DNA from: a bacterium
GTDB taxonomy: Bacteria > Patescibacteriota > Patescibacteriia > Patescibacteriales > JAKAJF01
DNA length: 64,000 bases
Direction of reading: 5' to 3'
Assembly (NCBI GenBank): GCA_021788015.1
Contig: JAJYLD010000001.1
Coordinates: forward strand, 209,581-273,580
Under the pieces are notes generated by a model, which made no database searches, was not told the DNA's origin, and saw nothing but the letters and a program-made list of their open reading frames with translations. This document shows, piece after piece, positions 856-59,057 of this stretch. A program made the translations under genes and the position numbers. How positions within the stretch are numbered: the first letter of the stretch is position 1; the number at the start of each line of letters is the position of its first letter.

Positions 856-956
856 ACGAATCCTGTTAAGGGGTGACTCCAGCGGGATTGGATTTATTTT
901 TTAAGAATTAATCTATGCGGATCAAATTTTTTTGATTGCGATCTGCTTCTAACGGG
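856..956 (+). repeat. SCAIR element (start-codon-abutting inverted repeat), short form, copy 1
   Basis: The left arm ACGAAT-CCTGTTAAGGGG (856-873) is imperfectly complementary to the right arm TCTGCTTCTAACGGG (942-956). The right arm ends one base before ATG 957. The 3' part TTTTTGATTGCGATCTGCTTCTAACGGGATGAAA closely matches 44713-44745. Confidence 0.7.
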
Positions 957-3656: not shown

Positions 3657-4109
3657 ATGATTAAAGATATAATCATAAAAAAACTGGAAAAATTTGAGGA
3701 TGATCGAGGCTGGCTCGCGGAAATTTACCGTGACGACGAACTTAATTATCAGCCTGTCATGGGATATGTAAGCGTAACCAAACCGGGAATAATTCGCGGA
3801 CCGCACGAGCACGTTGAGCAATCCGATTGTTTTGTTTTTTTGGGACCGGGCAGTTTTGAATTGCACCTTTGGGATCGAAGAGAAGCCAGCGAAACCAACG
3901 GCGAGTATTTAAAGATGAAAGTCGGGGAAAATAATCCGACAATGGTTATCGTCCCGCCCGGAGTCGTGCACGGATACAAATGCATCGGCGAAAAAGACGC
4001 TTATAGCATAAATCTGCCTAATAAACTTTATAAAGGCAAAAACAAAGCCGATGATGTCGACGAAATCAGATGGGAAAAAGATTCGGAATCGCCGTATAAA
4101 ATCGCATAA
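3657..4109 (+). CDS. rfbC: dTDP-4-dehydrorhamnose 3,5-epimerase-like cupin (RmlC family, short form)
   Basis: FEDDRGWLAEIY near the N-terminus, a HEH motif, PPGVVHGY, and position inside the rml operon. Confidence 0.75.
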   Translation: MIKDIIIKKLEKFEDDRGWLAEIYRDDELNYQPVMGYVSVTKPGIIRGPHEHVEQSDCFVFLGPGSFELHLWDRREASETNGEYLKMKVGENNPTMVIVPPGVVHGYKCIGEKDAYSINLPNKLYKGKNKADDVDEIRWEKDSESPYKIA

Positions 4110-14925: not shown

Positions 14926-15247
14926 ATGGATCCCGTTGGAAGCCGCGATCGCGCTTCCGGGGGGAGAATAAGAATAACCAAGAGAATCTAAAGATATAAT
15001 TTAGGCGGCTATGCAATATATCTTTTTGATCGCGATCCCGACACCGCAAGTCCTATCGGATTCGGCCACGGGACAAGTTCTGCCGCACAAAATTTATTAT
15101 TAACCACGTCTCGCCCCGTAGTCACCGAATTTACGAGGCGTACCCCGTTAGAAATCTTTGGGATAAACCAAAGTAGAAATTTTTTCAAGGACATATCAGT
15201 CCGGATGGAACTTCTAACGGGGTGTACTACAGGGGCATTCTAACGGG
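14926..15247 (+). repeat. SCAIR element, long form, copy A (carries a nested small copy)
   Basis: The left arm is ATGGAT-CCCGTTGGAAGC (14926-14943) and the right arm CATTCTAACGGG ends at 15247, before ATG 15248. The core from TTGATCGCGATCCCGA onward aligns with 49522-49665 and 54048-54188. Confidence 0.8.
15143..15222 (+). repeat. Nested mini-SCAIR inserted in the core of copy A
   Basis: CCCCGTTAGAA (15143-15153) is complementary to TTCTAACGGGG (15212-15222). It interrupts GAGG-TGTA-CTAC, which is contiguous in copies B and C, and is flanked by CGTA on the left and TGTA on the right. Confidence 0.7.
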
Positions 15248-20634: not shown

Positions 20635-20663
20635 AAAACCAACTAAATTAGTAGGAGATAATA

Positions 20664-20748
20664 ATACATCCCGTCAGAAGTCGTCGCTTTTGCGGGGTAA
20701 AAATTATTTTAATTTAGGCAGATTAATTAGAAGTCTGCTTCTAACGGG
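20664..20748 (+). repeat. SCAIR element, divergent short copy
   Basis: The left arm CATCCCGTCAGAAG (20667-20680) is complementary to the right arm CTTCTAACGGGATG, which ends at and includes ATG 20749. The right side carries the 19-mer GTCTGCTTCTAACGGGATG, identical to copies B and C. Confidence 0.7.
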
Positions 20749-21150
20749 ATGAAATTTTCGACAAAATCCACGTATGGCCTAAGGGCCATGATCAGGCTGG
20801 CGGAAAATTGGAAAAAAGAAAGTTTATCCTTATCGGTAATCGCAAAATCGGAAAACATTTCGCAAAAATACCTTGAAAGAATATTTGCTAGGTTAAAAAC
20901 AGCAAAATTGATCGAAAGTGAAAAGGGAGCGGGCGGCGGATATAAATTATCAAGATCTCCTTCTAAAATAAATATTTTGGAAATTATCGATGCATTGGAA
21001 GGAAAATTCGCGCCGTTTCATTGTTATACAAAAAGCGGAAAGGTTGTTTGTAGCACTTCCTGTAATTGCGGAGTTACTTTGGTTCTTAACCGCATTCAAA
21101 CCGGAATCGAAGATTCCTTAAGAAATATGAGCCTAAACCAGTTAAAATAA
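20749..21150 (+). CDS. Rrf2 family transcriptional regulator (IscR-like)
   Basis: MKFSTKSTYGLRAMIRLA winged-helix N-terminus, with C-terminal Cys residues (HCYTKSGKVVCSTSCNC). It lies at the head of the IscU/Nfu/desulfurase genes. Confidence 0.85.
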   Translation: MKFSTKSTYGLRAMIRLAENWKKESLSLSVIAKSENISQKYLERIFARLKTAKLIESEKGAGGGYKLSRSPSKINILEIIDALEGKFAPFHCYTKSGKVVCSTSCNCGVTLVLNRIQTGIEDSLRNMSLNQLK

Positions 21151-21151
21151 G

Positions 21152-21296
21152 AATCTCAAAACGCAAATCTCAAAACCAAAATTTAAAACCGAAAAACTGG
21201 ACAGAAAATACAATAAAAAATTTTTATTTTTATTCAAAGCAAAAATTTTTGAGATTTGAGTTATGGTTTTAAGTTTTGACATCTGAATTTTGAGAT
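21152..21296. repeat. AT-rich palindromic element (TCTCAAA word family), gene-less version
   Basis: 21153-21186 is identical to the reverse complement of 35378-35411 (34 nt). 21246-21296 resembles the reverse complement of 34981-35033. The two arms are mutually complementary. Confidence 0.75.
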
Positions 21297-22064: not shown

Positions 22065-22184
22065 TTTTAATTCTAGTTTTTAAATTATAATTTCTAATAA
22101 AATTTTCGTGAGAATAAACACATTCATAAATTTCAAATTTTATAATCATTTTACTAAATTACAATTTATAATTTAGTCATTTTT

Positions 22185-23714: not shown

Positions 23715-23807
23715 CCGTTAGAAGCGGATTTCAATCATTTTTGATTATACAAATCCGCATAAATAATGATTAAATTTTATCCCGGTCGAAGCGTGCTTCT
23801 AACGGGG
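23715..23807 (-). repeat. SCAIR element, short divergent copy on the minus strand
   Basis: Read on the minus strand: CCCCGTTAGAAGC (23807-23795) ... CCGCTTCTAACGG (23727-23715), immediately followed by ATG (23714-23712). The internal hairpin is GCGGATTT/AAATCCGC. Confidence 0.7.
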
Positions 23808-23813
23808 TAAATG

Positions 23814-24371
23814 TTATTTCCAATAAGTATCCGCGGTAATTTGCATCACCACGTCGTTTTTACCGGTATCATTGCTTTTAACGATATCAAGGTTGTTTAT
23901 GTTTATGTAATAATTCAAAGACTCCATGTCGATAAGATAATTTAAAATGCTCGGGAAATCTCCTTCGACCATGACTTGCAAAGGTATTTTTTTATAGACG
24001 GAATATTCCACGGCGTTATCAGTCATCAAATTGATTTTTTGACTTACATTATTTTTAGCGGCGATTCCCTCAAGAGTGGTCACAAATTCTAGGGCTCGGT
24101 TCTGATCGATAAAAACATTGTTCAGGGTGGTCAATTGCGGTTCCGTCTTTTTTAAATTTTCGCTTAATCTTCTCAAACTTTGCCCCTGGAGATATTTTTT
24201 TTCAAGGTCGTGTCTTTGCTGATTGATGGCGTCTTTCATGTTTAATATATCGGATATGGTGGGCATGATGATAAAATAAGACAAGATCGCAAAAAAGCCG
24301 ATTAACAAGACCACAAGGATGATTATTTTGTTTTTTAGGCCGATTTTTTTTGAATTATCGATTTTTGGCAT
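23814..24371 (-). CDS. pilO: Type IV pilus assembly protein PilO-like
   Basis: N-terminal TM plus a coiled-coil segment, 185 aa, immediately downstream of the pilM/pilN homologs. Confidence 0.65.
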   Translation of the reverse strand: MPKIDNSKKIGLKNKIIILVVLLIGFFAILSYFIIMPTISDILNMKDAINQQRHDLEKKYLQGQSLRRLSENLKKTEPQLTTLNNVFIDQNRALEFVTTLEGIAAKNNVSQKINLMTDNAVEYSVYKKIPLQVMVEGDFPSILNYLIDMESLNYYININNLDIVKSNDTGKNDVVMQITADTYWK

Positions 24372-28437: not shown

Positions 28438-28498
28438 AAATTTAACTCGAGGATCGCAATTAATTTTAAAACTCAAATGTCAAATCCCAAAACAGTTT

Positions 28499-33919: not shown

Positions 33920-34975
33920 ATGCACAACGAATTGATTCGGATTCTATTTTTGACAACATTGTCTTTCGCGTTCGCGATGGGCTGGACGCCGCTTCTCGCG
34001 CATTTTCTTTATAAATATAAAATGGGGAAAAGGATCAGGAGCAATGGCGGAACTCCGATTTTCACGCAAATGCATGCTCATAAACAAGGGACGCCGGTCA
34101 TGGGCGGTCTCTTGGTCTGGGTTACCGTATTAATTTTCAGCTTGGTCTTTTTTTATTTGCCGAAAATATTTCATTCCGATTTCCTCAACTCTTTGAATTT
34201 TCTTTCCAGAAAAGAAACGCTTTTACCGTTGGGCGTTCTCGTAGCCACCGCCTTGGTCGGCCTTTTGGACGACTGGCTTGACATTACCGGCAATGGCGTT
34301 GCGGGCGGCGGAGGATTAAAAGTAAGGCATCGCCTTCTTATTTATACTCTTATCGCGATAGTGGGCGCTTGGTGGTTTTATTTTAAATTGGATTGGGATT
34401 TTTTTCATATCCCTTTTATCGGCAATTTTAAAATCGGTTGGTACTACATACTCATTTTTATTTTTGTGCTTGTCGCTACGGCCTTCTCGGTCAATGAAAC
34501 CGACGGCTTGGACGGTCTTTCCGGAGGCGTTTTACTTTCCTCATTCAGCGCCTATGCCGTAATCGCCTACGCTTTGGGCAAATATGATCTGGCCACTTTT
34601 TGCGGAATTATTGTCGGCGCCCTTCTCGCTTTTTTATGGTTCAATATCAATCCGGCGAGATTCTTTATGGGCGATACCGGATCCATGAGCCTTGGCATAA
34701 CTTTAGGCATAATTGCCATGCTCACGAACAGCGCTTTGATTTTGCCCATCATCGGCTTCGTTTTTGTTATTGAGTCACTGTCGGTTATCATTCAAATCAT
34801 TTCCAAAAAATTGCGCCACGGGAAAAAAGTTTTTCTTTCAAGCCCTTTGCACCATCATTTCGAAGCTAAAGGTTGGCCGGAGCCGAAAATCGTGATGCGA
34901 TTCTGGGTTATTGCCGGGGTAACTTCGGTTTTAGGTTTGATCATTTTTCTTTTGGACCAAACTACGAAAAGATAA
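33920..34975 (+). CDS. mraY: Phospho-N-acetylmuramoyl-pentapeptide transferase
   Basis: GLLDDWLDI, NETDGLDGL, FMGDTGSMSLG and PLHHHFE motifs. Confidence 0.95.
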   Translation: MHNELIRILFLTTLSFAFAMGWTPLLAHFLYKYKMGKRIRSNGGTPIFTQMHAHKQGTPVMGGLLVWVTVLIFSLVFFYLPKIFHSDFLNSLNFLSRKETLLPLGVLVATALVGLLDDWLDITGNGVAGGGGLKVRHRLLIYTLIAIVGAWWFYFKLDWDFFHIPFIGNFKIGWYYILIFIFVLVATAFSVNETDGLDGLSGGVLLSSFSAYAVIAYALGKYDLATFCGIIVGALLAFLWFNINPARFFMGDTGSMSLGITLGIIAMLTNSALILPIIGFVFVIESLSVIIQIISKKLRHGKKVFLSSPLHHHFEAKGWPEPKIVMRFWVIAGVTSVLGLIIFLLDQTTKR

Positions 34976-34980
34976 ATAAA

Positions 34981-35418
34981 ATCTCAAAACTCAAATGTCA
35001 AATCTCGAAACTGCAACTCAAAACCAAAAAACAGATGTAAAGATGAGAGCCTATCATTTTTCGATCCGTGTTATAAAGTTCATGGATTCTCTGCCGAATA
35101 AAAGAATTTTTGGATAATCGCAGGCCAACTATTAAGATCGGTAACCTCGATCGGAGCAAATATTATCGAAGCGAAATCGTCGTCATCGAAAAAAGATTTT
35201 ATTAAGTTTTATGAAATCGCTTTAAAATCGTCAAATGAAAGTAAGTATTGTTCGGATTATTGAGAGACGCCACGAATACAGACAAGGTAAAGTCAATGAA
35301 TTATTGCAAGAAACGAAAGAAATATCAAAAATACTCGGTGCCAGTCTGCTCACGCTTAAAAATAAAAGATTTTAGCTTTAAATTTTGGTTTTGAGATTTG
35401 CGTTTTGAGATTTGAGAT
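34981..35418 (+). mobile_element. Palindrome-flanked cassette carrying a degraded four-helix-bundle protein gene
   Basis: Arm 34981-35033 and arm 35378-35418 are mutually complementary TCTCAAA-word sequences. Both are shared, in inverted orientation, with the gene-less locus at 21152-21296. Confidence 0.5.
35043..35375 (+). pseudogene. Four-helix-bundle protein (23S rRNA intervening-sequence protein family), frameshifted
   Basis: Three frames together read MRAYHFSIRVIKFMDSLPNKRIF / IIAGQLLRSVTSIGANIIEAKSSSSKKDFIKFYEIALKSSNESKY / VNELLQETKEISKILGASLLTLKNKRF. This matches the family pattern (QL.RS..SIGANI.E....S.KDF) but needs at least two frameshifts. Confidence 0.7.
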
Positions 35419-35425
35419 TAATATC

Positions 35426-43059: not shown

Positions 43060-44598
43060 ATGGCGATAATCTTTATTTTTTTGCTTATTTTGGTCGCTTC
43101 CGTCTTCACTCCCCAGTATATTTTATTTTTATTGGTTCTAAATCTTTTCGCCGGACTTTTTCTGTCTCTCTCCCAAATAATAATCGCTTTGCTGCCGCAC
43201 GCAAAGCCTCTTCATAAACAATTGAATTCGCAACCGTTCGTTTCGATTTTCGTTCCCGCCTATAACGAACCTCCAGCGATTTTGATGCAAACGCTGGAAA
43301 CCCTTTCAAAATTGAGATATGACAATTTTGAAGTTTTGGTCATAGACAATAACACCGAAGATCCGGATATTTGGAAACCGGTGGAAGCGTTTACAAAAAC
43401 GCTCGGAGAAAAGTTTCGTTTCTTTCATGTCGATCGCCTTTCCGGTTTTAAAGCCGGCGCGCTCAATTACCTTATAAAATACATGGAAAAGAAATCGGAA
43501 TATGTGGCCGTAATCGACGCCGATTATCTCGTCCATTCCTATTTTTTGACAACCGCTTTGTCATATTTCACGAATAAAGACATAGCTCTCGTGCAATTTC
43601 CGCAGCAATACCGCAATCGCATCAAAAAGAATCAGGCCATAGCCGACGAATACAGACATTTTTTCGGTATTTACATGAATATGGCCAATCATCTCGACTG
43701 CGTTCCCTCGACCGGTACCGTAAGTATTTATAAGTCGAACGTTTTGCGCCAAATCGGCGGTTTTCGGGGCGAGGCGCTTACGGAAGACGCCGATATCGGA
43801 CTTAGAATTTACGGAGCGGGTTATCGCGGGATATTTGTCGACCGACCGATCGGTTACGGTTTGATGCCTTACGACCTTGAAGCTTACCGGAAGCAAAAAT
43901 GGAGATGGGCGTTCGGAAACGCGCAATCGATAAAAACTCTTTTTTCTCTGTTTGGGAAAATTCCGTTCAGGTCCTGGCTAGGATTTCTTATCCATCTTAC
44001 GGCATGGGATCATTTGAATTTCTTACCATTCGCCGTTTTGGCCGCTTATTCCGTCGTTTTGCTGCCGAACATTCCGGTAACGCCCACGCATAGGCTTCTG
44101 CTTGAAATCGCTTCTTTGTCGATTTTTGTCACCTTGATATCCAAATTGATTCTTATTCGAGTGGCTTTGCGGAACCAGCCGAATTCTTTATCGCGTTCTT
44201 TGCGGGCTTTCGGAGTCCATATCGGCATGACTTTTTTGTATTCCGAAGCATGGCTTACCTATATTCTGCGCATGAAATTCACTTTTGAACGAACAAACAA
44301 ATTTATTTTTGCGAAAATGCCGAGCCTTTTGAAAAATTCGTACAAAGAGCTTGTCCTGGGATTATGGTTTTTGATCGGGATGGTTGAGGCTATCTTCTGG
44401 GGTACAAGAATAATAACGGTCGTCGCTTATTTTGTCTCGTCGATAATTTTATTTTCCGTTTACTACGTGTATTGGAAAATTTATCCGACAAAATCATATT
44501 CGAAAAAAATATTTGAAAACACGGAAAAGAAATATCTTCCTTATATCAAGTCAACGACTCACAATGTAAATTACGAATTAACCGAAGCAAGATTATGA
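43060..44598 (+). CDS. Membrane-embedded processive GT2 synthase (cellulose/chitin/hyaluronan-synthase-like)
   Basis: N-terminal TMs, a GT-A core (VIDNNTED, DADY, TEDADIG), then the QxxRW motif (RKQKWRWAFGN) followed by about six TM helices. Confidence 0.8.
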   Translation: MAIIFIFLLILVASVFTPQYILFLLVLNLFAGLFLSLSQIIIALLPHAKPLHKQLNSQPFVSIFVPAYNEPPAILMQTLETLSKLRYDNFEVLVIDNNTEDPDIWKPVEAFTKTLGEKFRFFHVDRLSGFKAGALNYLIKYMEKKSEYVAVIDADYLVHSYFLTTALSYFTNKDIALVQFPQQYRNRIKKNQAIADEYRHFFGIYMNMANHLDCVPSTGTVSIYKSNVLRQIGGFRGEALTEDADIGLRIYGAGYRGIFVDRPIGYGLMPYDLEAYRKQKWRWAFGNAQSIKTLFSLFGKIPFRSWLGFLIHLTAWDHLNFLPFAVLAAYSVVLLPNIPVTPTHRLLLEIASLSIFVTLISKLILIRVALRNQPNSLSRSLRAFGVHIGMTFLYSEAWLTYILRMKFTFERTNKFIFAKMPSLLKNSYKELVLGLWFLIGMVEAIFWGTRIITVVAYFVSSIILFSVYYVYWKIYPTKSYSKKIFENTEKKYLPYIKSTTHNVNYELTEARL

Positions 44599-44739
44599 AT
44601 TCCATTAGAAGCTCAGCCGGAAACGGACGAGCGCGATTGCTTCGTTGGAAAGACAATAGAAATAAAAAATAAAGGATTAAAGATTAACTCGAGCGGATAA
44701 GCAGTTCAAACTTTTTGATCGCGATTCGCTTCCAATGGG
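44595..44739 (+). repeat. SCAIR element, short form, with compensated arm variants
   Basis: The left arm is ATGAAT-TCCATTAGAAGC (44595-44612) and the right arm GCTTCCAATGGG (44728-44739) ends before ATG 44740. The internal TTTTTGATCGCGAT matches the start of the long-form core. Confidence 0.7.
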
Positions 44740-49247: not shown

Positions 49248-49265
49248 GTTTTAAGTAGAGGTATT

Positions 49266-49348
49266 AATCTCAAATCTCAAAAAGCAAAAATTAAAACTGT
49301 AACTTAAAACTAAAAAGTTTTGAGATTTGCCATTTGAGTTTTGAGATT
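49266..49348. repeat. AT-rich palindromic element (TCTCAAA word family), third locus
   Basis: AATCTCAAATCTCAAAAAGC ... GCCATTTGAGTTTTGAGATT form complementary arms, using the same words as 21152-21296 and 34981-35418. Confidence 0.65.
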
Positions 49349-49402
49349 TTTTTTCTCAGCCAGATTTTATGTCCCGGTTCTGTTTGACGGATTGCAAGAA
49401 TG

Positions 49403-49432
49403 CCTCAAATTATGTTAAAATAAATTCATGAA
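49403..49432 (+). promoter_or_regulatory. Sigma-70-type promoter with extended -10 just upstream of SCAIR copy B
   Basis: TTGCAA (49403-49408), an 18-nt spacer ending in TGt, then TAAAAT (49427-49432). The predicted start lies within a few nt of the element's left edge at 49439. Confidence 0.55.
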
Positions 49433-49438
49433 TCCCGT

Positions 49439-49665
49439 TTTAGAAGCCGCGGTAGCTTTCACGGGAAGAATAGGTCTGATGTGAAATAAATTAAAATTTT
49501 TAACTTAGCAGATATAAATCAAATTTGATCGCGATCCCGATACAACAAATCCTGTCGGATTTGGCTACGGGACAAGTTCTATCGCACAAAACTTATTTTT
49601 AACCACGTCTCGCCCCGTAGTCACCGAGTTCACGAGGTGTACTACGGGGGTCTGCTTCTAACGGG
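49439..49665 (+). repeat. SCAIR element, long form, copy B
   Basis: The left arm is ATGAAT-CCCGTTTTAGAAGC and the right arm GTCTGCTTCTAACGGG ends at 49665, before ATG 49666. The core at 49522-49665 is nearly identical to 54048-54188. Confidence 0.8.
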
Positions 49666-51317: not shown

Positions 51318-53108
51318 ATGGATAACGAAATAACAGTATTCGCGGAAACGACTTTCCGCAATCATCATCGAAAATTCGGAATAAAAATCGACGATCGTCG
51401 CCGACATATGTATTTGATCGGGAAAACCGGTATGGGCAAATCGACCATTTTGGAAAATATGATTGTCGAGGACATCCGGGCCGGAAAAGGCGTCGCCGTA
51501 GTCGATCCGCATGGCGATTTGGCGGAAAAAATTATCGAGTTCATTCCCTCCGGCCGCGTCAATGACGTCGTTTATTTCAACCCCGCGGACATGGAATTCC
51601 CGATCGCTTTTAACGTTGTCGAACATGTCGAGCCACACTTGAGACATCTCGTCGCTTCCGGGCTTTTGGGAGTCTTTCAAAAATTATGGGCTGATTCATG
51701 GGGTCCTCGTTTGGAATATATTTTGCGCAACGCCATTTTGGCGATTCTTGATTATCCTGGCTCCACGCTTCTCGCCGTTACCAGAATGCTTTCCGATAAA
51801 GCCTTCAGAAAAAAGGTTATTGAAAAAATTCAGGATCCGGTCGTTAAAGCTTTTTGGGTCAATGAATTCGCCGGCTATGCCGACAAGTTCGCTTCCGAAG
51901 CGGTTTCTCCTATCCAAAACAAGGTCGGACAATTTTTGTCGAGTTCTTTGATTCGCAATATCGTCGGTCAAGTAAAATCCTCGATCGACGTCAGAAAAAT
52001 AATGGACGAAGGAAAAATTTTGATCATGAATTTAAGCAAAGGAAGAATCGGAGAAGATAACTCGGCGCTTTTGGGCTCTATGATGATCACAAAAATCCAG
52101 CTCGCGGCCATGAGCCGGGTCGATTTGCCGGAAAAGGACAGAAAAGATTTTTATCTTTATGTCGATGAATTTCAAAATTTCGCGACGGACAGTTTTGCCA
52201 ATATTCTTTCCGAAGCGAGAAAGTACCGTTTGAACTTGATCATGGCTCATCAATACATCGAACAGCTCGGCGAAAAAGTCAAGCCGGCCGTTTTCGGCAA
52301 TGTCGGCACTCTGATTGTTTTTAGGGTCGGAGCGGTCGACGCCGAAGAATTGGTAAAAGAATTTACGCCGACTTTTATGGAAGAAGACATCGTCAATTTG
52401 CCCAAATATGAATTTTATATAAAACTGATGATTGACGGGGTCGCTTCAAACCCGTTTTCCGCGCGCGGTTTGCCGCCTCTTGAAGAGGATGAAAAAACCG
52501 GCAATATCGAAAAGATCATAAAAGTTTCGCGTGAGCGTTATGCGAAAAAACGATCCGAGGTTGAAGAAAAAATCGCCCGTTGGCATATGAGCATAGAAGA
52601 AACGGAAGTAAAAAATTCGGCCGCGACAAAAGATAAAAGGAGAGAAGAAAAAGAACCTTGGAAAGAAAAAAACAAAAAAGTCGAATATTTGAAGCCAAAG
52701 ACCGAATTCGGGCGGGAAGAAAGAAAGACGGAAAGAAGCGATCGGGACAAGACGAATAAAAAGGAGGACGCTTTTCAATACGCGGCCGTTTGTTCACGAT
52801 GCGGAAAGGAAACGAAAATTTCTTTCGTGCCCGACGGTATTCGGCCGATATTTTGTAAAGATTGTCTCGCGATCGCGAAAAAAGAAAAACAATCGGAAGT
52901 CGAAACAAGAAAAAAAATGAAAATGAGGGAACTTGAAAAAATATCCCCGGCGGAAATCGATTCTCGGCCCGAGATGTCTCTGTCCCAACTTTCAAAGGAC
53001 AATATTGTAAGTTTTAAATCGGACAAAGATGGTTCGGCTCCGAAAATTGCCGATCCAAAAGCATTCGAGGGAAAATTAGAAGATGGTAAAGAGGTTAATT
53101 TTGAATAA
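51318..53108 (+). CDS. TraD/VirD4/HerA-like P-loop ATPase with a Lys/Glu-rich tail and a C-terminal CxxC...CxxC zinc ribbon
   Basis: Walker A GKTGMGKST, DPHGD, Walker B-like FYLYVDEFQNF, RKYRLNLIMAHQ, and the C-terminal CSRCGKETKISFVPDGIRPIFCKDC (52791-52865). Confidence 0.75.
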   Translation: MDNEITVFAETTFRNHHRKFGIKIDDRRRHMYLIGKTGMGKSTILENMIVEDIRAGKGVAVVDPHGDLAEKIIEFIPSGRVNDVVYFNPADMEFPIAFNVVEHVEPHLRHLVASGLLGVFQKLWADSWGPRLEYILRNAILAILDYPGSTLLAVTRMLSDKAFRKKVIEKIQDPVVKAFWVNEFAGYADKFASEAVSPIQNKVGQFLSSSLIRNIVGQVKSSIDVRKIMDEGKILIMNLSKGRIGEDNSALLGSMMITKIQLAAMSRVDLPEKDRKDFYLYVDEFQNFATDSFANILSEARKYRLNLIMAHQYIEQLGEKVKPAVFGNVGTLIVFRVGAVDAEELVKEFTPTFMEEDIVNLPKYEFYIKLMIDGVASNPFSARGLPPLEEDEKTGNIEKIIKVSRERYAKKRSEVEEKIARWHMSIEETEVKNSAATKDKRREEKEPWKEKNKKVEYLKPKTEFGREERKTERSDRDKTNKKEDAFQYAAVCSRCGKETKISFVPDGIRPIFCKDCLAIAKKEKQSEVETRKKMKMRELEKISPAEIDSRPEMSLSQLSKDNIVSFKSDKDGSAPKIADPKAFEGKLEDGKEVNFE

Positions 53109-53213
53109 AAAATGTCTAAATTATAATTTCCAATTTCTAAATTTAGGAATTGGGAATTTTATTAGACCTTATAATTTAGAAATTAGAAATTTTTGTCATT
53201 ACTCTCGCCTATT

Positions 53214-54017
53214 ATGAAAATCAAAGCCAGTTTACATATTCATACCAAAGAAGATAAAAAAGAGGGTTTTTTTATAAGCTACTCGATTTATGATTTAATT
53301 GATCATGCGAAATTGTTAGGCTTCAGGGTCTTGGCCTTGACGACCCATAAAACTTTTGTTTATAAGGAAGAGTACGGAAAGTACGCGGAAGAGAAAGGCA
53401 TTTTACTAATCCCCGGAATCGAACTTGATATGCATGCGCCGTTTTTAAAACGATGCCATATTCTCGTTTTAAATTGCGAAAAAGACATCGAGAAAGTAAA
53501 AACATTTTCTGATCTGAAAAAATACAAAAAAAAGAATCCGAAAATTTTTATCATCGCCCCTCATCCCAATTTCGACTATTTCAATTCGATGGGCATGCGC
53601 AATTTGAAAAAATATATCGGACTTTTTGACGCGATCGAACATTCTTGGTTTTTTTCAACATTCTTGAATTTTAACAGACGCGCGGGAAGAATCGCAAAAA
53701 AATTCAAAAAGCCCTTTATCGCCACGGCCGATTGTCATACCCTTGATTTTTTCAATTCCGATTACATAACCCTTGACTTAAAAAAAATGGACGCCGATTC
53801 CGTATTCAAAAAATTAAGAGAAAGAAAGTTTGAAAATGTGACCAAACGAAAAAAATTCTTGAAAATAATTTTTTATTATCTTAAAGAATTTATCTTTAAA
53901 TATTACGGATTGCTTTTGATCGTAAAAATTAAGAACATTTTAGAAAAAGATACGAATCCCGTTAGAAGCCGCGATCGCTTTAATGGGGAAAAAATAAAAC
54001 ATGAAAAAATTTCATAA
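53214..54017 (+). CDS. PHP family metal-dependent phosphoesterase
   Basis: The ATG at 53214 gives MKIKASLHIHTKED (HxH motif), with later TTH, APHP and ADCH metal-ligand motifs. The last 22 codons run through the left arm of SCAIR copy C. Confidence 0.7.
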   Translation: MKIKASLHIHTKEDKKEGFFISYSIYDLIDHAKLLGFRVLALTTHKTFVYKEEYGKYAEEKGILLIPGIELDMHAPFLKRCHILVLNCEKDIEKVKTFSDLKKYKKKNPKIFIIAPHPNFDYFNSMGMRNLKKYIGLFDAIEHSWFFSTFLNFNRRAGRIAKKFKKPFIATADCHTLDFFNSDYITLDLKKMDADSVFKKLRERKFENVTKRKKFLKIIFYYLKEFIFKYYGLLLIVKIKNILEKDTNPVRSRDRFNGEKIKHEKIS

Positions 54018-54188
54018 TAATATGCAGATTATAGAATCAAAATTTTTTTTGATCGCGATCCCGATACAACAAATCCTGTCGGATTTGGCTACGGGACAAG
54101 TTCTATCGCACAAAACTTATTTTAACTACGTCTCGCCCCGTAGTCACCGAGTTTACGAGGTGTACTACCGGGGTCTGCTTCTAACGGG
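53952..54188 (+). repeat. SCAIR element, long form, copy C
   Basis: The left arm ACGAAT-CCCGTTAGAAGC lies inside the 3' end of the PHP gene, and the right arm GTCTGCTTCTAACGGG ends at 54188, before ATG 54189. Confidence 0.8.
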
Positions 54189-55745
54189 ATGGATTATCTA
54201 AAAATTGGAAAAGCCACGGATCTCGATGGCGGGGATAAAAAATTATACCGGTTTTTGGAAATTCTTCCCGGCTCGCTTTCCTGGGCGACTTTAATCATTT
54301 TAACTTTGGCATCTTATCTCTGGCCGGTATGGGCGGCTTATTTTATTATCGCCTTTGACGTTTATTGGCTCTTATTGGTCGCTTTTCTTGGAATTCATTT
54401 GATTGTCAGTTATCGCAAATTGACGCAAAACAAAAAAGTGAATTGGGAAAAGGAATGTGAAAAAATCGATCTTTCCGATTCCGGTTTCAGTTTCGATTCC
54501 TGGCGAGACGTTTATCATCTCATAATTTTCCCGACCTATAACGAGAGCCTGGAAATTATCCGCCCCAGCATAGAAAGCGTTTTAAACGACGGCTATCCTT
54601 TGGATAAAATTATTCTGGTTTTGGCGATTGAAGAACGCGGCGGTCCCGAAGCTTTGGAGCGCGCGAAAACGATCGAGCGAGAATACGGAAATAAATTCGG
54701 ACATTTTTTAATTACCACCCATCCCGATGGAATTGTCGGAGAACTTAAAGCAAAGGGCGCGAACCAAGCATGGGCGGCCCGAGAGGTCAAAGAAAAAATT
54801 ATCGACAAAGAGGGGATCGATTACGATCGTATACTTGTGAGCGTTTTTGATATCGATACGATTGTGGATAAAGGTTATTTTTTCCGTCTGACCCAAAAAT
54901 TTTTAACTTCAAAAAATCCTTATCGCGCCAGTTATCAGCCGGTTCCTGTTTATTTCAACAATCTTTGGGAAGCGCCTTTTTTCGCGCGCGTGGCCGCATC
55001 CTCGAACACTTTTTGGCAAATGATGCAACAGATCAGGGAAGAAAAATTGGCGACGTATTCATCTCACTCTATGACATGGAAAGCTTTGGTTGAAATAGGA
55101 TTTTGGTCGACAAGTATGGTTAGCGAGGACTCAAGAATTTTTTGGCATTGTTTTTTGTATTATAACGGCGATTATCGAGTGGAACCGCTTTATTTTCCGG
55201 TATCGATGGACGTTACCATGGATGAAAGCTTTAAAAAAACCATGATCAATTTGTACAAACAGCAAAGGAGATGGGGCTGGGGCGTGGAAAATTTGCCCTA
55301 TCTTATGTTTAATACGATAAAAAGATGGAAAATTTTGCCAAAAAAAGGAAAAATGATCAATCGCATTTCGGTTCAACTTTATGGATTTCACTCCTGGGCG
55401 ACAAACGCCCTTATTATCGGTATTATCGGTTGGTTTCCCGTTCTTCTTGGGGGGGGGCGGTTTAATTCCACCGTGCTCTCCGGAAATTTACCTTATATAA
55501 GTCGAACGTTAATGACCTTGGCTATGGGCGGCATGGTTTTATCGGCCGTCGTTTCAACATTGCTTTTGCCCGAAAGACCGAAAAGATACGGATTTATAAA
55601 AAATATTATCATGTTTTTTCAATGGTTGATTCTGCCATTGAGCATAATTATTTTCGGATCCATCCCCGGGTTGGAGGCGCAGACTCGCTTGATGTTGGGC
55701 AAATATATGGGTTTCTTTGTTACGCCGAAAGCGAGAAAAAGTTAG
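54189..55745 (+). CDS. Membrane-embedded GT2-like synthase with a QxxRW motif
   Basis: N-terminal TMs, a GT-A-like core (IIFPTYNESLE, VFDIDT, SEDSRIF), YKQQRRWGWG, and C-terminal TM helices. Confidence 0.75.
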   Translation: MDYLKIGKATDLDGGDKKLYRFLEILPGSLSWATLIILTLASYLWPVWAAYFIIAFDVYWLLLVAFLGIHLIVSYRKLTQNKKVNWEKECEKIDLSDSGFSFDSWRDVYHLIIFPTYNESLEIIRPSIESVLNDGYPLDKIILVLAIEERGGPEALERAKTIEREYGNKFGHFLITTHPDGIVGELKAKGANQAWAAREVKEKIIDKEGIDYDRILVSVFDIDTIVDKGYFFRLTQKFLTSKNPYRASYQPVPVYFNNLWEAPFFARVAASSNTFWQMMQQIREEKLATYSSHSMTWKALVEIGFWSTSMVSEDSRIFWHCFLYYNGDYRVEPLYFPVSMDVTMDESFKKTMINLYKQQRRWGWGVENLPYLMFNTIKRWKILPKKGKMINRISVQLYGFHSWATNALIIGIIGWFPVLLGGGRFNSTVLSGNLPYISRTLMTLAMGGMVLSAVVSTLLLPERPKRYGFIKNIIMFFQWLILPLSIIIFGSIPGLEAQTRLMLGKYMGFFVTPKARKS

Positions 55746-58885: not shown

Positions 58886-59057
58886 ACAGAAAGAACGGAA
58901 TTACATATAAAATTTCTAATTTCTAAATCGTAATTCCCAATAAAAATTCCAAGTTTTAATTTTGATTTTTTTAGCATTGGATATTTTATTGGAAATTAGA
59001 AATTATAATTTAGGCATTTTCTTATATTTTTTTGATTTATATTTTAATTTTTTTAAC

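Follow-up and report, generated by a model that had tools for sequence, protein, structure and literature searches.

A MITE-like palindromic element at start codons in Patescibacteria, with a local hairpin that may keep the start usable

Short palindromic repeats stand directly before start codons in the genome of a bacterium of the lineage Patescibacteriota; Patescibacteriia; Patescibacteriales; JAKAJF01 (GTDB). One of them, called copy C here, lies in a stretch of 64,000 nucleotides (GCA_021788015.1, contig JAJYLD010000001.1, positions 209,581-273,580, forward strand; referred to as the window) and adjoins the ATG of a membrane glycosyltransferase gene. Copy C is probably a non-autonomous mobile element resembling MITEs, the miniature transposable elements with inverted repeats, in which a hairpin formed locally by the left arm would keep the start codon usable, and do so constitutively. 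The element is abundant in some genomes of Patescibacteria (Candidate Phyla Radiation, CPR). Three strands, namely a left arm, a complement close to it and a second complement at the start codon, are part of its architecture in this genome.

The element has several of the features by which MITEs are recognized. It is short and has terminal inverted repeats, a flanking duplication of the form ATGNN, dispersed copies, and presence/absence differences between genomes. It contains short open reading frames (ORFs) only and no transposase gene. The flanking direct repeat is typically 5 bp long and includes the start codon, giving the arrangement ATGNN/T-CCCG...CGGG/ATGNN. Among 106 copies, 62 have the left ATG 6 nt before CCCG, 14 have it 5 nt and 8 have it 7 nt before, and 22 have none. 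Bases 4 and 5 are identical on both sides in 55 of the 62; permutation gives 24.6 on average, and in 10000 permutations a value of 55 is never attained.

Repeats of 5-6 bp are also seen at insertions away from an ATG: G(C/T)GTAC in copy A of the window, and CAGGC and GTCGA at locus L046 of another genome. At L046 one copy, flanked by CAGGC, is nested in another. A further GC-rich copy at this locus, flanked by GTCGA, consists of 78 nt (26 codons), is free of stops and lies in frame inside a ribD-like ORF. It encodes PVRSRPPTAVGVTTGTSGRLASNG (...KKRVD[PVRSRPPTAVGVTTGTSGRLASNG]VDLARAL...), and both arms are open in the frame of the gene (PVRS / ASNG). Such in-frame intragenic copies are a minority subfamily, and copy C is located outside the glycosyltransferase ORF. 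Tandem copies occur at L004, L030, L045, L050, and L090.

Evidence for an insertion is provided by relatives of the glycosyltransferase gene. With this protein as query, a metagenome scan gave 80 orthologous loci of 63-75% identity, of which 78 could be evaluated. The element is upstream of the gene in 0 of the 78; instead, ordinary AT-rich leaders precede ATGGATTAT, the sequence with which both the orthologues and the glycosyltransferase of the window begin. In syntenic relatives, such as L123, the neighbouring TraG-like gene is found 9 nt from the glycosyltransferase start. A covariance model of the family, run on 309 kb of relatives, returned a handful of weak hits only, compared with 7-9 copies in the 64-kb window. 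Because the orthologues lack the element and the syntenic sites are empty, copy C is a lineage-specific insertion and not an inherited regulator. It was thus inserted at the start codon and did not evolve as a regulator of the glycosyltransferase. One of the weak model hits in a relative's locus (L159, 3405-3541) proved to be another palindromic element, whose arms TTCCCGCGCAGGCGGGAATC...GATTCCCGCCTGCGCGGGAA enclose an AT-rich interior.

The same arms recur throughout the window. The 12-nt arm, with up to 2 mismatches, occurs 15 times where 3.45 occurrences are expected, and 0 of 100 shuffles reach 15. These matches resolve into seven elements plus nested copies. In all seven the right arm adjoins the ATG of a real ORF, and the genes that follow are unrelated: glycosyltransferases of two families (GT4 and GT2), an S41 peptidase, an Rrf2 regulator, and a small membrane protein.

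Copies in other genomes were collected with the exact 17-mer CTGCTTCTAACGGGATG, which spans the right end and the ATG, using one genome per species. This gave at least 118 matches in at least 113 genome stretches. A left arm is located upstream in 106 of the 118 listed matches, mostly about 100-120 nt away. The size of the element ranges from 70 to 330 nt, and the distance between arms has a main peak at 100-120 nt and a second one at 60-80 nt. At least 100 codons are open from the ATG in 103 of 112 evaluable cases, with N-termini that look native. Genes found downstream include ssb (four times), ruvC, murG, mreB-like genes, and genes for glycosyltransferases, aminoacyl-tRNA synthetases, and ribosomal proteins. 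Several copies per 8-kb locus are present in other genomes.

Nearly all of the listed 17-mer matches are on genomes labelled Patescibacteria or CPR, and a few carry other labels. The labels include Saccharibacteria, Paceibacteria, and Nomura-, Kaiser-, Levy-, Kerfeld-, Moran-, and Microgenomates-type metagenome-assembled genomes (MAGs). Genuine copies are also found at L018, L063, L064, and L075, in MAG contigs labelled Gammaproteobacteria or Omnitrophota. These may reflect either binning errors or transfer outside the CPR.

The covariance model was built from an alignment of 86 copies and then run on other loci, where it found 39 further copies that were selected independently of the exact 17-mer. 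In the alignment the outer stem TCCCGTTAGA/TCTAACGGGA is invariant. The 14-bp arms pair perfectly, or very nearly, in all but a few copies, and a second helix of 7 bp comes after them. While the outer TCCCGTTAGA stays constant, the inner 3-4 bp of the arms covary across copies. The 39 model-found copies keep near-perfect arm pairing despite changes in the inner three pairs. Compensated forms include AGC/GCT, AGT/ACT, AAT/ATT, GAC/GTC, GAT/ATC, GGC/GCC, AAG/CTT, and AAA/TTT, as well as CACG/CGTG and TTCGAA variants. The second helix, CGCGRTC/GAYCGCG, covaries as well, with 33 AU, 30 GC, and 5 GU at its variable pair. Such compensation indicates that the hairpin as such is maintained.

About 30 of the 39 model-found copies stand directly before a start codon with an open frame. 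Since the trinucleotide YCU is unpaired on one side of the helix only, the element is asymmetric and its orientation can be read. This orientation relative to the gene is fixed: all 39 copies are alike, with the YCU bulge and the interior always proximal to the gene. Together, the upkeep of the stem and the fixed orientation point to a constraint from gene expression, and not from transposition alone.

An earlier note on this DNA described a left arm, an adjacent local complement, and a third strand next to the start codon. The sequences that it quoted for copies A and C and for the copies at 23807 and 44601 all match, and the two mutually exclusive pairings of the left arm that it proposed are laid out in 7 of 7 window copies. 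In all seven the left arm takes part in a local hairpin on the 5' side, with a free energy of -10.1 to -22.6 kcal/mol and z scores of -1.3 to -4.5. The hairpin of copy C is among the weaker ones, and 10 of 200 shuffles are as good. Where the left arm at 44601 has A instead of G, the local complement and the distal arm both have a matching U. In the full-length minimum-energy fold, 6 of 7 copies have this left arm paired to the distal arm. This pairing covers 12-14 nt before the AUG plus the A and U of the AUG itself, within a near-perfect terminal helix of 21 bp (14+7) that has a 4-nt bulge. The geometry that the note proposed is thus supported; at equilibrium the closed fold is favoured in six of the seven copies.

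A transcript is different while it is still being made. In 5 of 6 copies, the prefix that exists before the right arm does has CCCG of the left arm paired locally, in copy C with the complement at 53977-53988. Of 96 copies across the family, 35% have a strong complement to the left arm's 5' half in the 34 nt that follow it; duplex energies on this 5' side average -4.6 kcal/mol, and those of shuffled sequences -3.1 (p ~1e-3). Among copies that have no internal ORF, the share with this layout is 60%. On the 3' side, 42% of copies have a corresponding hairpin, in which the second helix contributes its 3' strand (p ~1e-13).

These observations can be combined into a mechanism. If the element is transcribed as part of an mRNA leader, its two ends would form the 21-bp helix and bury the 14 nt before the AUG. 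A buried AUG would be a problem where ordinary leaders are rich in AT and free of Shine-Dalgarno (SD) sequences. In the window, SD-like tetramers (GGAG, GAGG, AGGA at -25 to -4) precede 2 of 38 ordinary genes, and the mean GC content at -25 to -1 is 0.24 in ordinary genes compared with 0.50 in genes bearing the element. On the nascent transcript, the local complement and its 3'-side counterpart hairpin would occupy the left arm. Closure would be delayed or weakened, and the start codon could be used as it emerges. The three-strand design would in this way make the element tolerable at a start codon, by a constitutive kinetic competition instead of a switch operated by ligand or temperature. 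In other subfamilies, a small internal ORF that stops at a TAA 4 nt before the AUG may serve instead, through termination and reinitiation.

The positions of copy C, its parts, and related features are collected in Table 1.

Table 1. Parts of copy C, other copies in the window, and related features at loci of other genomes (window coordinates unless a locus is named).
Feature	Position	Strand	Remarks
Degenerate left copy of the start region	53952..53956	+	ACGAA, compared with ATGGA at 54189-54193; relic of the flanking direct repeat
Left terminal inverted repeat (left arm), T-CCCGTTAGAAGC	53957..53969	+	Pairs with 54177-54190 in the minimum-energy fold
5' strand of second helix, CGCGATC	53970..53976	+	Partner GATCGCG at 54051-54057
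Local complement of left arm, GCTTTAATGGGG	53977..53988	+	Hairpin 53958-53988, -11.8 kcal/mol, z -1.7
Variable AT-rich interior	53989..54050	+	Sequence not conserved across the family
3' strand of second helix, GATCGCG	54051..54057	+	Fold and family covariation
Extra long-form module, ~115-120 nt	54060..54173	+	Two hairpins; repeat family D1
Conserved unpaired YCU 5' of right arm	54174..54176	+	CCT or TCT in nearly all copies
Right terminal inverted repeat (distal arm), GCTTCTAACGGG	54177..54188	+	Exact reverse complement of left arm; repeat family D4
518-aa membrane glycosyltransferase (Glyco_trans_2_3; GT2)	54189..55745	+	Native ATG adjoins the element directly
Second copy, before GT4 gene (ATG 957)	856..956	+	33.7 bits; left repeat ACGAA
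Copy A, long form, before S41 peptidase gene (ATG 15248)	14926..15247	+	ATGGA repeated on both sides
78-nt copy nested in copy A	15144..15221		27.6 bits; G(C/T)GTAC on both sides; away from any start codon
Short copy, before Rrf2 regulator gene (ATG 20749)	20663..20748	+	43.1 bits; 5' hairpin -15.8 kcal/mol, z -4.5
Minus-strand copy, before 92-aa membrane ORF (ATG 23714-23712)	23715..23813	-	31.2 bits; downstream of minus-strand ORF 23814-24371
Copy before GT4 gene (ATG 44740)	44594..44739	+	29.4 bits; arms vary with compensation (TTCCATT / CAATGGG)
Copy B, long form, before 487-aa ORF of no assigned function (ATG 49666)	49428..49665	+	ATGAA repeated on both sides
Long-form module in window	54060-54173, 49537-49650, 15038-15143 and continuation past nested copy	+	Two hairpins
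Long-form module in other CPR genomes	L036 1-112; L111 ~3780-3900 (minus strand)		Same place in element
Internal ORF of ~20-25 codons, e.g. MKxNIEKINNxKYQIRELIAICF	L033 4932-5062, L017 6118-6247, L074 3242-3371, L021 6257-6379, ~50 other loci
Short GC-rich copies in coding sequence	L046 1273-1357, 859-1014	-	One in frame in ribD-like ORF, one with nested copy
Copy probably inside TraG-like ORF	L144 134-254		Behaves like a Rickettsia palindromic element

Several observations weigh against the reading of copy C as a MITE-like element kept harmless by its local hairpin. Some concern its mobility. The direct repeat can be anything between 4 and 6 bp long, an unusual spread if a single transposase is at work. 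A search for an autonomous partner, covering the window and 194 loci (about 1.2 Mb), found no arm pair that encloses an ORF of transposase size; arm pairs 0.6-4 kb apart enclose ordinary genes in all loci. A near-exclusive position at start codons together with a fixed orientation is not expected of an ordinary DDE-type MITE with loose target choice. As the 5-bp repeats elsewhere show that target choice is loose, the bias to start codons needs either a targeting mechanism or strong selection.

Others concern the RNA. The start-open role of the local hairpin is a proposal, and at equilibrium the folding models favour the closed state. At 37 C, opening the right arm and the AUG costs 8.5-15.2 kcal/mol in six copies, compared with 4.9 kcal/mol in copy 945, where the left arm is decayed. 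Given this cost, an equilibrium switch between two states is implausible; the comparison of conformers that the earlier note had called for leaves room only for kinetic competition. A direct-path estimate puts the barrier that an open fold must pass to close at 6.8-13.8 kcal/mol. In copy C it is only about 7 (7.2) kcal/mol, and the kinetic trap may thus persist for much less than a second. Across the family, too, only about a third of the copies have a 5' local complement that is strong.

Finally, mismatches in the stem do not identify the strand on which selection acts. Read on the sense strand, there are about 14 G-U and 10 A-C mismatches overall. Pattern-selected copies have 4 to at least 7, unselected ones about 10 to 3, numbers that are small and contradictory. 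As they give no clear preference for the sense RNA strand, the stem could be maintained at the level of DNA. In addition, the statistics for the whole family count related copies as independent.

Among the other explanations, it is possible, though unlikely, that the terminal helix is a site for RNase III. Cleavage would then remove the left arm, so that the AUG would follow a short leader free of structure, and the local hairpins would be incidental. The long helix of the Correia elements of Neisseria is cleaved by RNase III. The near-perfect 21-bp helix of the present element is maintained by covariation, has the same orientation as the gene, and forms at equilibrium, and a processing step would explain why the genes continue to be translated. 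However, RNase III does not need the strong conservation of the outer 10 bp of sequence. Cleavage also leaves unexplained the enrichment of the local complement and its anticorrelation with the internal ORF: a strong 5' hairpin is found in 60% of copies without that ORF compared with 17% of copies with it (p 9e-5). Copy 856-956, moreover, lacks the long helix, as its left arm is degenerate (CCTGTTAAGG) and its pairing is now local only, yet the gene downstream persists.

The internal ORF is the basis for a second explanation, which is distinctly unlikely for copy C. Ribosomes on the small ORF, or ribosomes starting from the left ATG, would melt the right arm, stop at the TAA, and reinitiate at the gene. 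An ORF of at least 15 codons that begins with ATG and ends exactly at the TAA of the right arm is present in 55 of 100 copies, compared with 3 and 6 of 100 in the other frames, although these copies are related by descent and the counts overstate their independence. The frame of the TAA runs open through 20 codons or more in 60% of copies, compared with 27% of interior shuffles. In some lineages that use SD sequences, GGGAG can be seen by eye 6-9 nt before the internal ATG. The peptides, however, are not conserved, even though the frame is strongly enriched. In the window, an ORF ending at this TAA is found in copy A only, where it has 12 codons and starts in the nested insertion; copy C has none, and the coupling model therefore cannot be transferred to it.

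A third explanation, which merits about as little belief, is that the element is purely selfish DNA. The inverted repeats and the complements just inside them would serve transposition only, whether as sites where proteins bind or as hairpins of single-stranded DNA, and the RNA folds would be by-products with no effect on expression. Terminal inverted repeats, flanking repeats, nesting, and patchy distribution are all consistent with this, as is the absence of a clear excess of G-U over A-C mismatches. Orientation, however, is fixed, and some 80% or more of the unselected copies are at a start codon. A 21-bp helix set against the AUG would also hardly be neutral among unstructured, AT-rich leaders.

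It is very doubtful, though conceivable, that the family homes to start codons and acts as a portable leader for perhaps one gene in ten of some CPR genomes, with ribosomes crossing the base of the helix from one AUGNN copy to the other. Ribosomes would initiate at the original start context, either at a leaderless 5' end or behind an upstream signal, or in operons would terminate there. The whole would amount to a bacterial form of ribosome shunting, or of bypassing at the stage of initiation, tuned by local hairpins or internal ORFs; it is the joint scheme that has this low probability. A structured insert between identical codons is also found in the hop of phage T4 gene 60, in the yeast mitochondrial byp elements, and in shunting on cauliflower mosaic virus RNA, and here the duplicated AUGNN would play that part. 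In the mitochondrial byp elements, the take-off and landing codons derive from the target duplication of the insert. In several window copies, though, the left ATG has decayed, as in the ACG at 53953 (copy C) and at 857 (copy 856-956), which argues that the left ATG is not required.

Promoter-like sequences are found near some copies. In 27 of 84 copies, a -10-like hexamer of the TATAAT type precedes the left ATG by 5-10 nt. With a -10 box next to the left ATG, as in leaderless mRNAs, the transcript would have the element at its very start. The sequences suggest that many host genes are transcribed as leaderless mRNAs. Boxes of this kind are seen in the left flanks at L114, L091, L070, L096, L059, L068, L109, and others, and at 49410-49433 of the window. 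For instance, copy B has the -10-like TAAAAT 6 nt before its left ATG. A promoter-like sequence, TTGACA-17-TATAAT, is located about 40 nt upstream of the copy at 20663-20748.

Least credible is a dedicated translational switch, in which the interior senses a signal and the left arm flips between partners, as the earlier note suggested in naming riboswitches, attenuators, and thermosensors. Mutually exclusive pairings in all seven window copies, distal pairing over the region before the AUG, and covarying stems would all fit such a switch, and competition between three strands with one fold sequestering the start is indeed shared with translational riboswitches, RNA thermometers, and attenuators. 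Against it stand unrelated downstream genes, the lack of the element in all 78 orthologous leaders, and the hallmarks of a mobile element. Nor can the interior be upheld as a sensing domain. No conserved, pocket-like core is found there in the 86-copy alignment; it is AT-rich and variable, and covariation is confined to the closing helices. Riboswitches differ in having a sensing core, functionally coherent genes, and conservation among orthologues. RNA thermometers differ in having a weak, mismatched hairpin, whereas the helix here is near-perfect (14+7 bp), costs up to 15 kcal/mol to open, and is far too stable for that role. Leader-peptide attenuators rely on a terminator, made of a hairpin plus a U-tract, that translation of the leader peptide controls. 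Within copy C or beside it, no site resembling a terminator was found, and no run of U follows the hairpins in the window copies.

Database searches give no other assignment. At gathering thresholds, Rfam finds tRNAs and one RNase P only in the whole window, searched along with 18 other loci, and nothing on the element; copy C has no match at E values up to 10, with the long-form module included. A known self-cleaving ribozyme or a tRNA-like structure for end processing is without Rfam support. We know of no obvious complementarity of the arms to the 3' end of 16S rRNA or to initiator tRNA.

The element can also be compared with known families of repeats. The Correia elements (NEMIS/CREE), RUP, and ERIC/IRU are likewise short and non-coding (about 100-160 bp), with terminal inverted repeats, target duplications, and many copies. 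Correia elements and other MITEs are often transcribed together with neighbouring genes, and their repeats fold into a long hairpin in the mRNA, a layout that the present element would share. The Correia elements differ in that they duplicate TA and have no tie to start codons or to orientation, whereas the present element usually duplicates ATGNN, adjoins the native start, and takes one orientation. Unlike them, it has no known parent insertion sequence, and its hosts are CPR bacteria. The palindromic, stop-free in-frame inserts known as Rickettsia palindromic elements (RPEs) resemble the copy at L046. RPEs are mostly intragenic, with no reported preference for start codons, whereas the element here is mostly AT-rich, contains stops, and lies outside the ORF at the ATG.

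Two further candidates were rejected. The attC sites of integrons have a similar size range, an imperfect palindrome with bulges, and boxes like GTTRRR / YYYAAC (here GTTAGA / TCTAAC). In the present element, however, the order of the boxes is reversed on both strands (GTTAGAA 5', TTCTAAC 3') and there are flanking duplications. Nesting and direct repeats do not fit cassette recombination, and the element stands before an ATG and not after the ORF of a preceding cassette. Elements of the IS200/IS605 or REP type were rejected because these have neither terminal inverted repeats nor target duplications.

In copy C, the left arm proper, CCCGTTAGAAGC, occupies 53958-53969. Its local complement looks like a degenerate copy of the right arm. 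The right arm contains a TAA stop 4 nt before the ATG of the gene. An ATG in the interior, at 54001, opens a frame of 66 codons that runs to 54201 and is out of frame with the gene. An upstream ORF for a PHP-domain protein (53193-54017; ...NPVRSRDRFNGEKIKHEKIS*) has its final 20 or so codons, at 53955-54017, in the left part of the element. The C-terminus called for this ORF is probably a consequence of the insertion.

The left repeat of the copy at 44601, ATGAA (44595-44598), includes the TGA stop of the upstream GT2 gene. An ancestral ATGA overlap of stop and start was therefore split by the insertion.

Copies A, B, and C of the window are long forms, the only kind of copy that contains the extra module. 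Its position, between the second helix and the right arm, is fixed. In copy C, the module includes a conserved hairpin, CCCCGTAGTCACCGAG...GAGGTGTACTACCGGGG, at 54136-54173. Even between distant CPR genomes, one segment of the module, CCCCGTAGTCACCGAG...GAGGYGTACTAYNGGGG, shows high conservation. The ends of the module, CCCGATAC...GTACTACGGGG, are similar to the arms of the element itself. Coding potential was rejected for the module: copies A and B share a frame and copy C is frameshifted.

The association of a MITE or palindromic element with start codons across CPR bacteria appears to be unreported, judging from Rfam and from the literature searched. No description of the family was found there, either by its arm sequences or under the topics of leaderless mRNAs, ribozymes, MITEs, palindromic repeats, and start codons in CPR bacteria. 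If the reading is right, CPR genomes contain a widespread family of repeats that targets start codons, or survives only at them, and that duplicates the start codon on insertion. A stable hairpin would then be set against the AUG of many genes that look essential, such as ssb, murG, ruvC, and ribosomal protein genes. This bears on how translation is initiated in CPR bacteria, where many host genes look leaderless or free of SD sequences, and on how a selfish element stays harmless at the most sensitive position of a gene. It also bears on genome annotation, an example being the PHP-domain ORF that the element lengthens by about 20 codons. The family offers a concrete system in which start-codon accessibility, reinitiation, and RNA processing in CPR bacteria can be studied.

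Other repeats are present in the window. A second, unrelated intergenic family consists of AATCTCAAAAC-like units at 21138-21209, 28462-28498, 34971-35030, 35364-35423, and 49262-49357. These units are direct and inverted between sites, over up to 60 nt, with 82-93% complementarity. A third repeat, AT-rich and AAAATGTCTAAATTATAATTTCCAATTTCTAA-like, is found in inverted orientation in intergenic regions beside gene starts, at 53108-53193, 58909-59020, and 22071-22184. It may be a shared promoter or terminator module.

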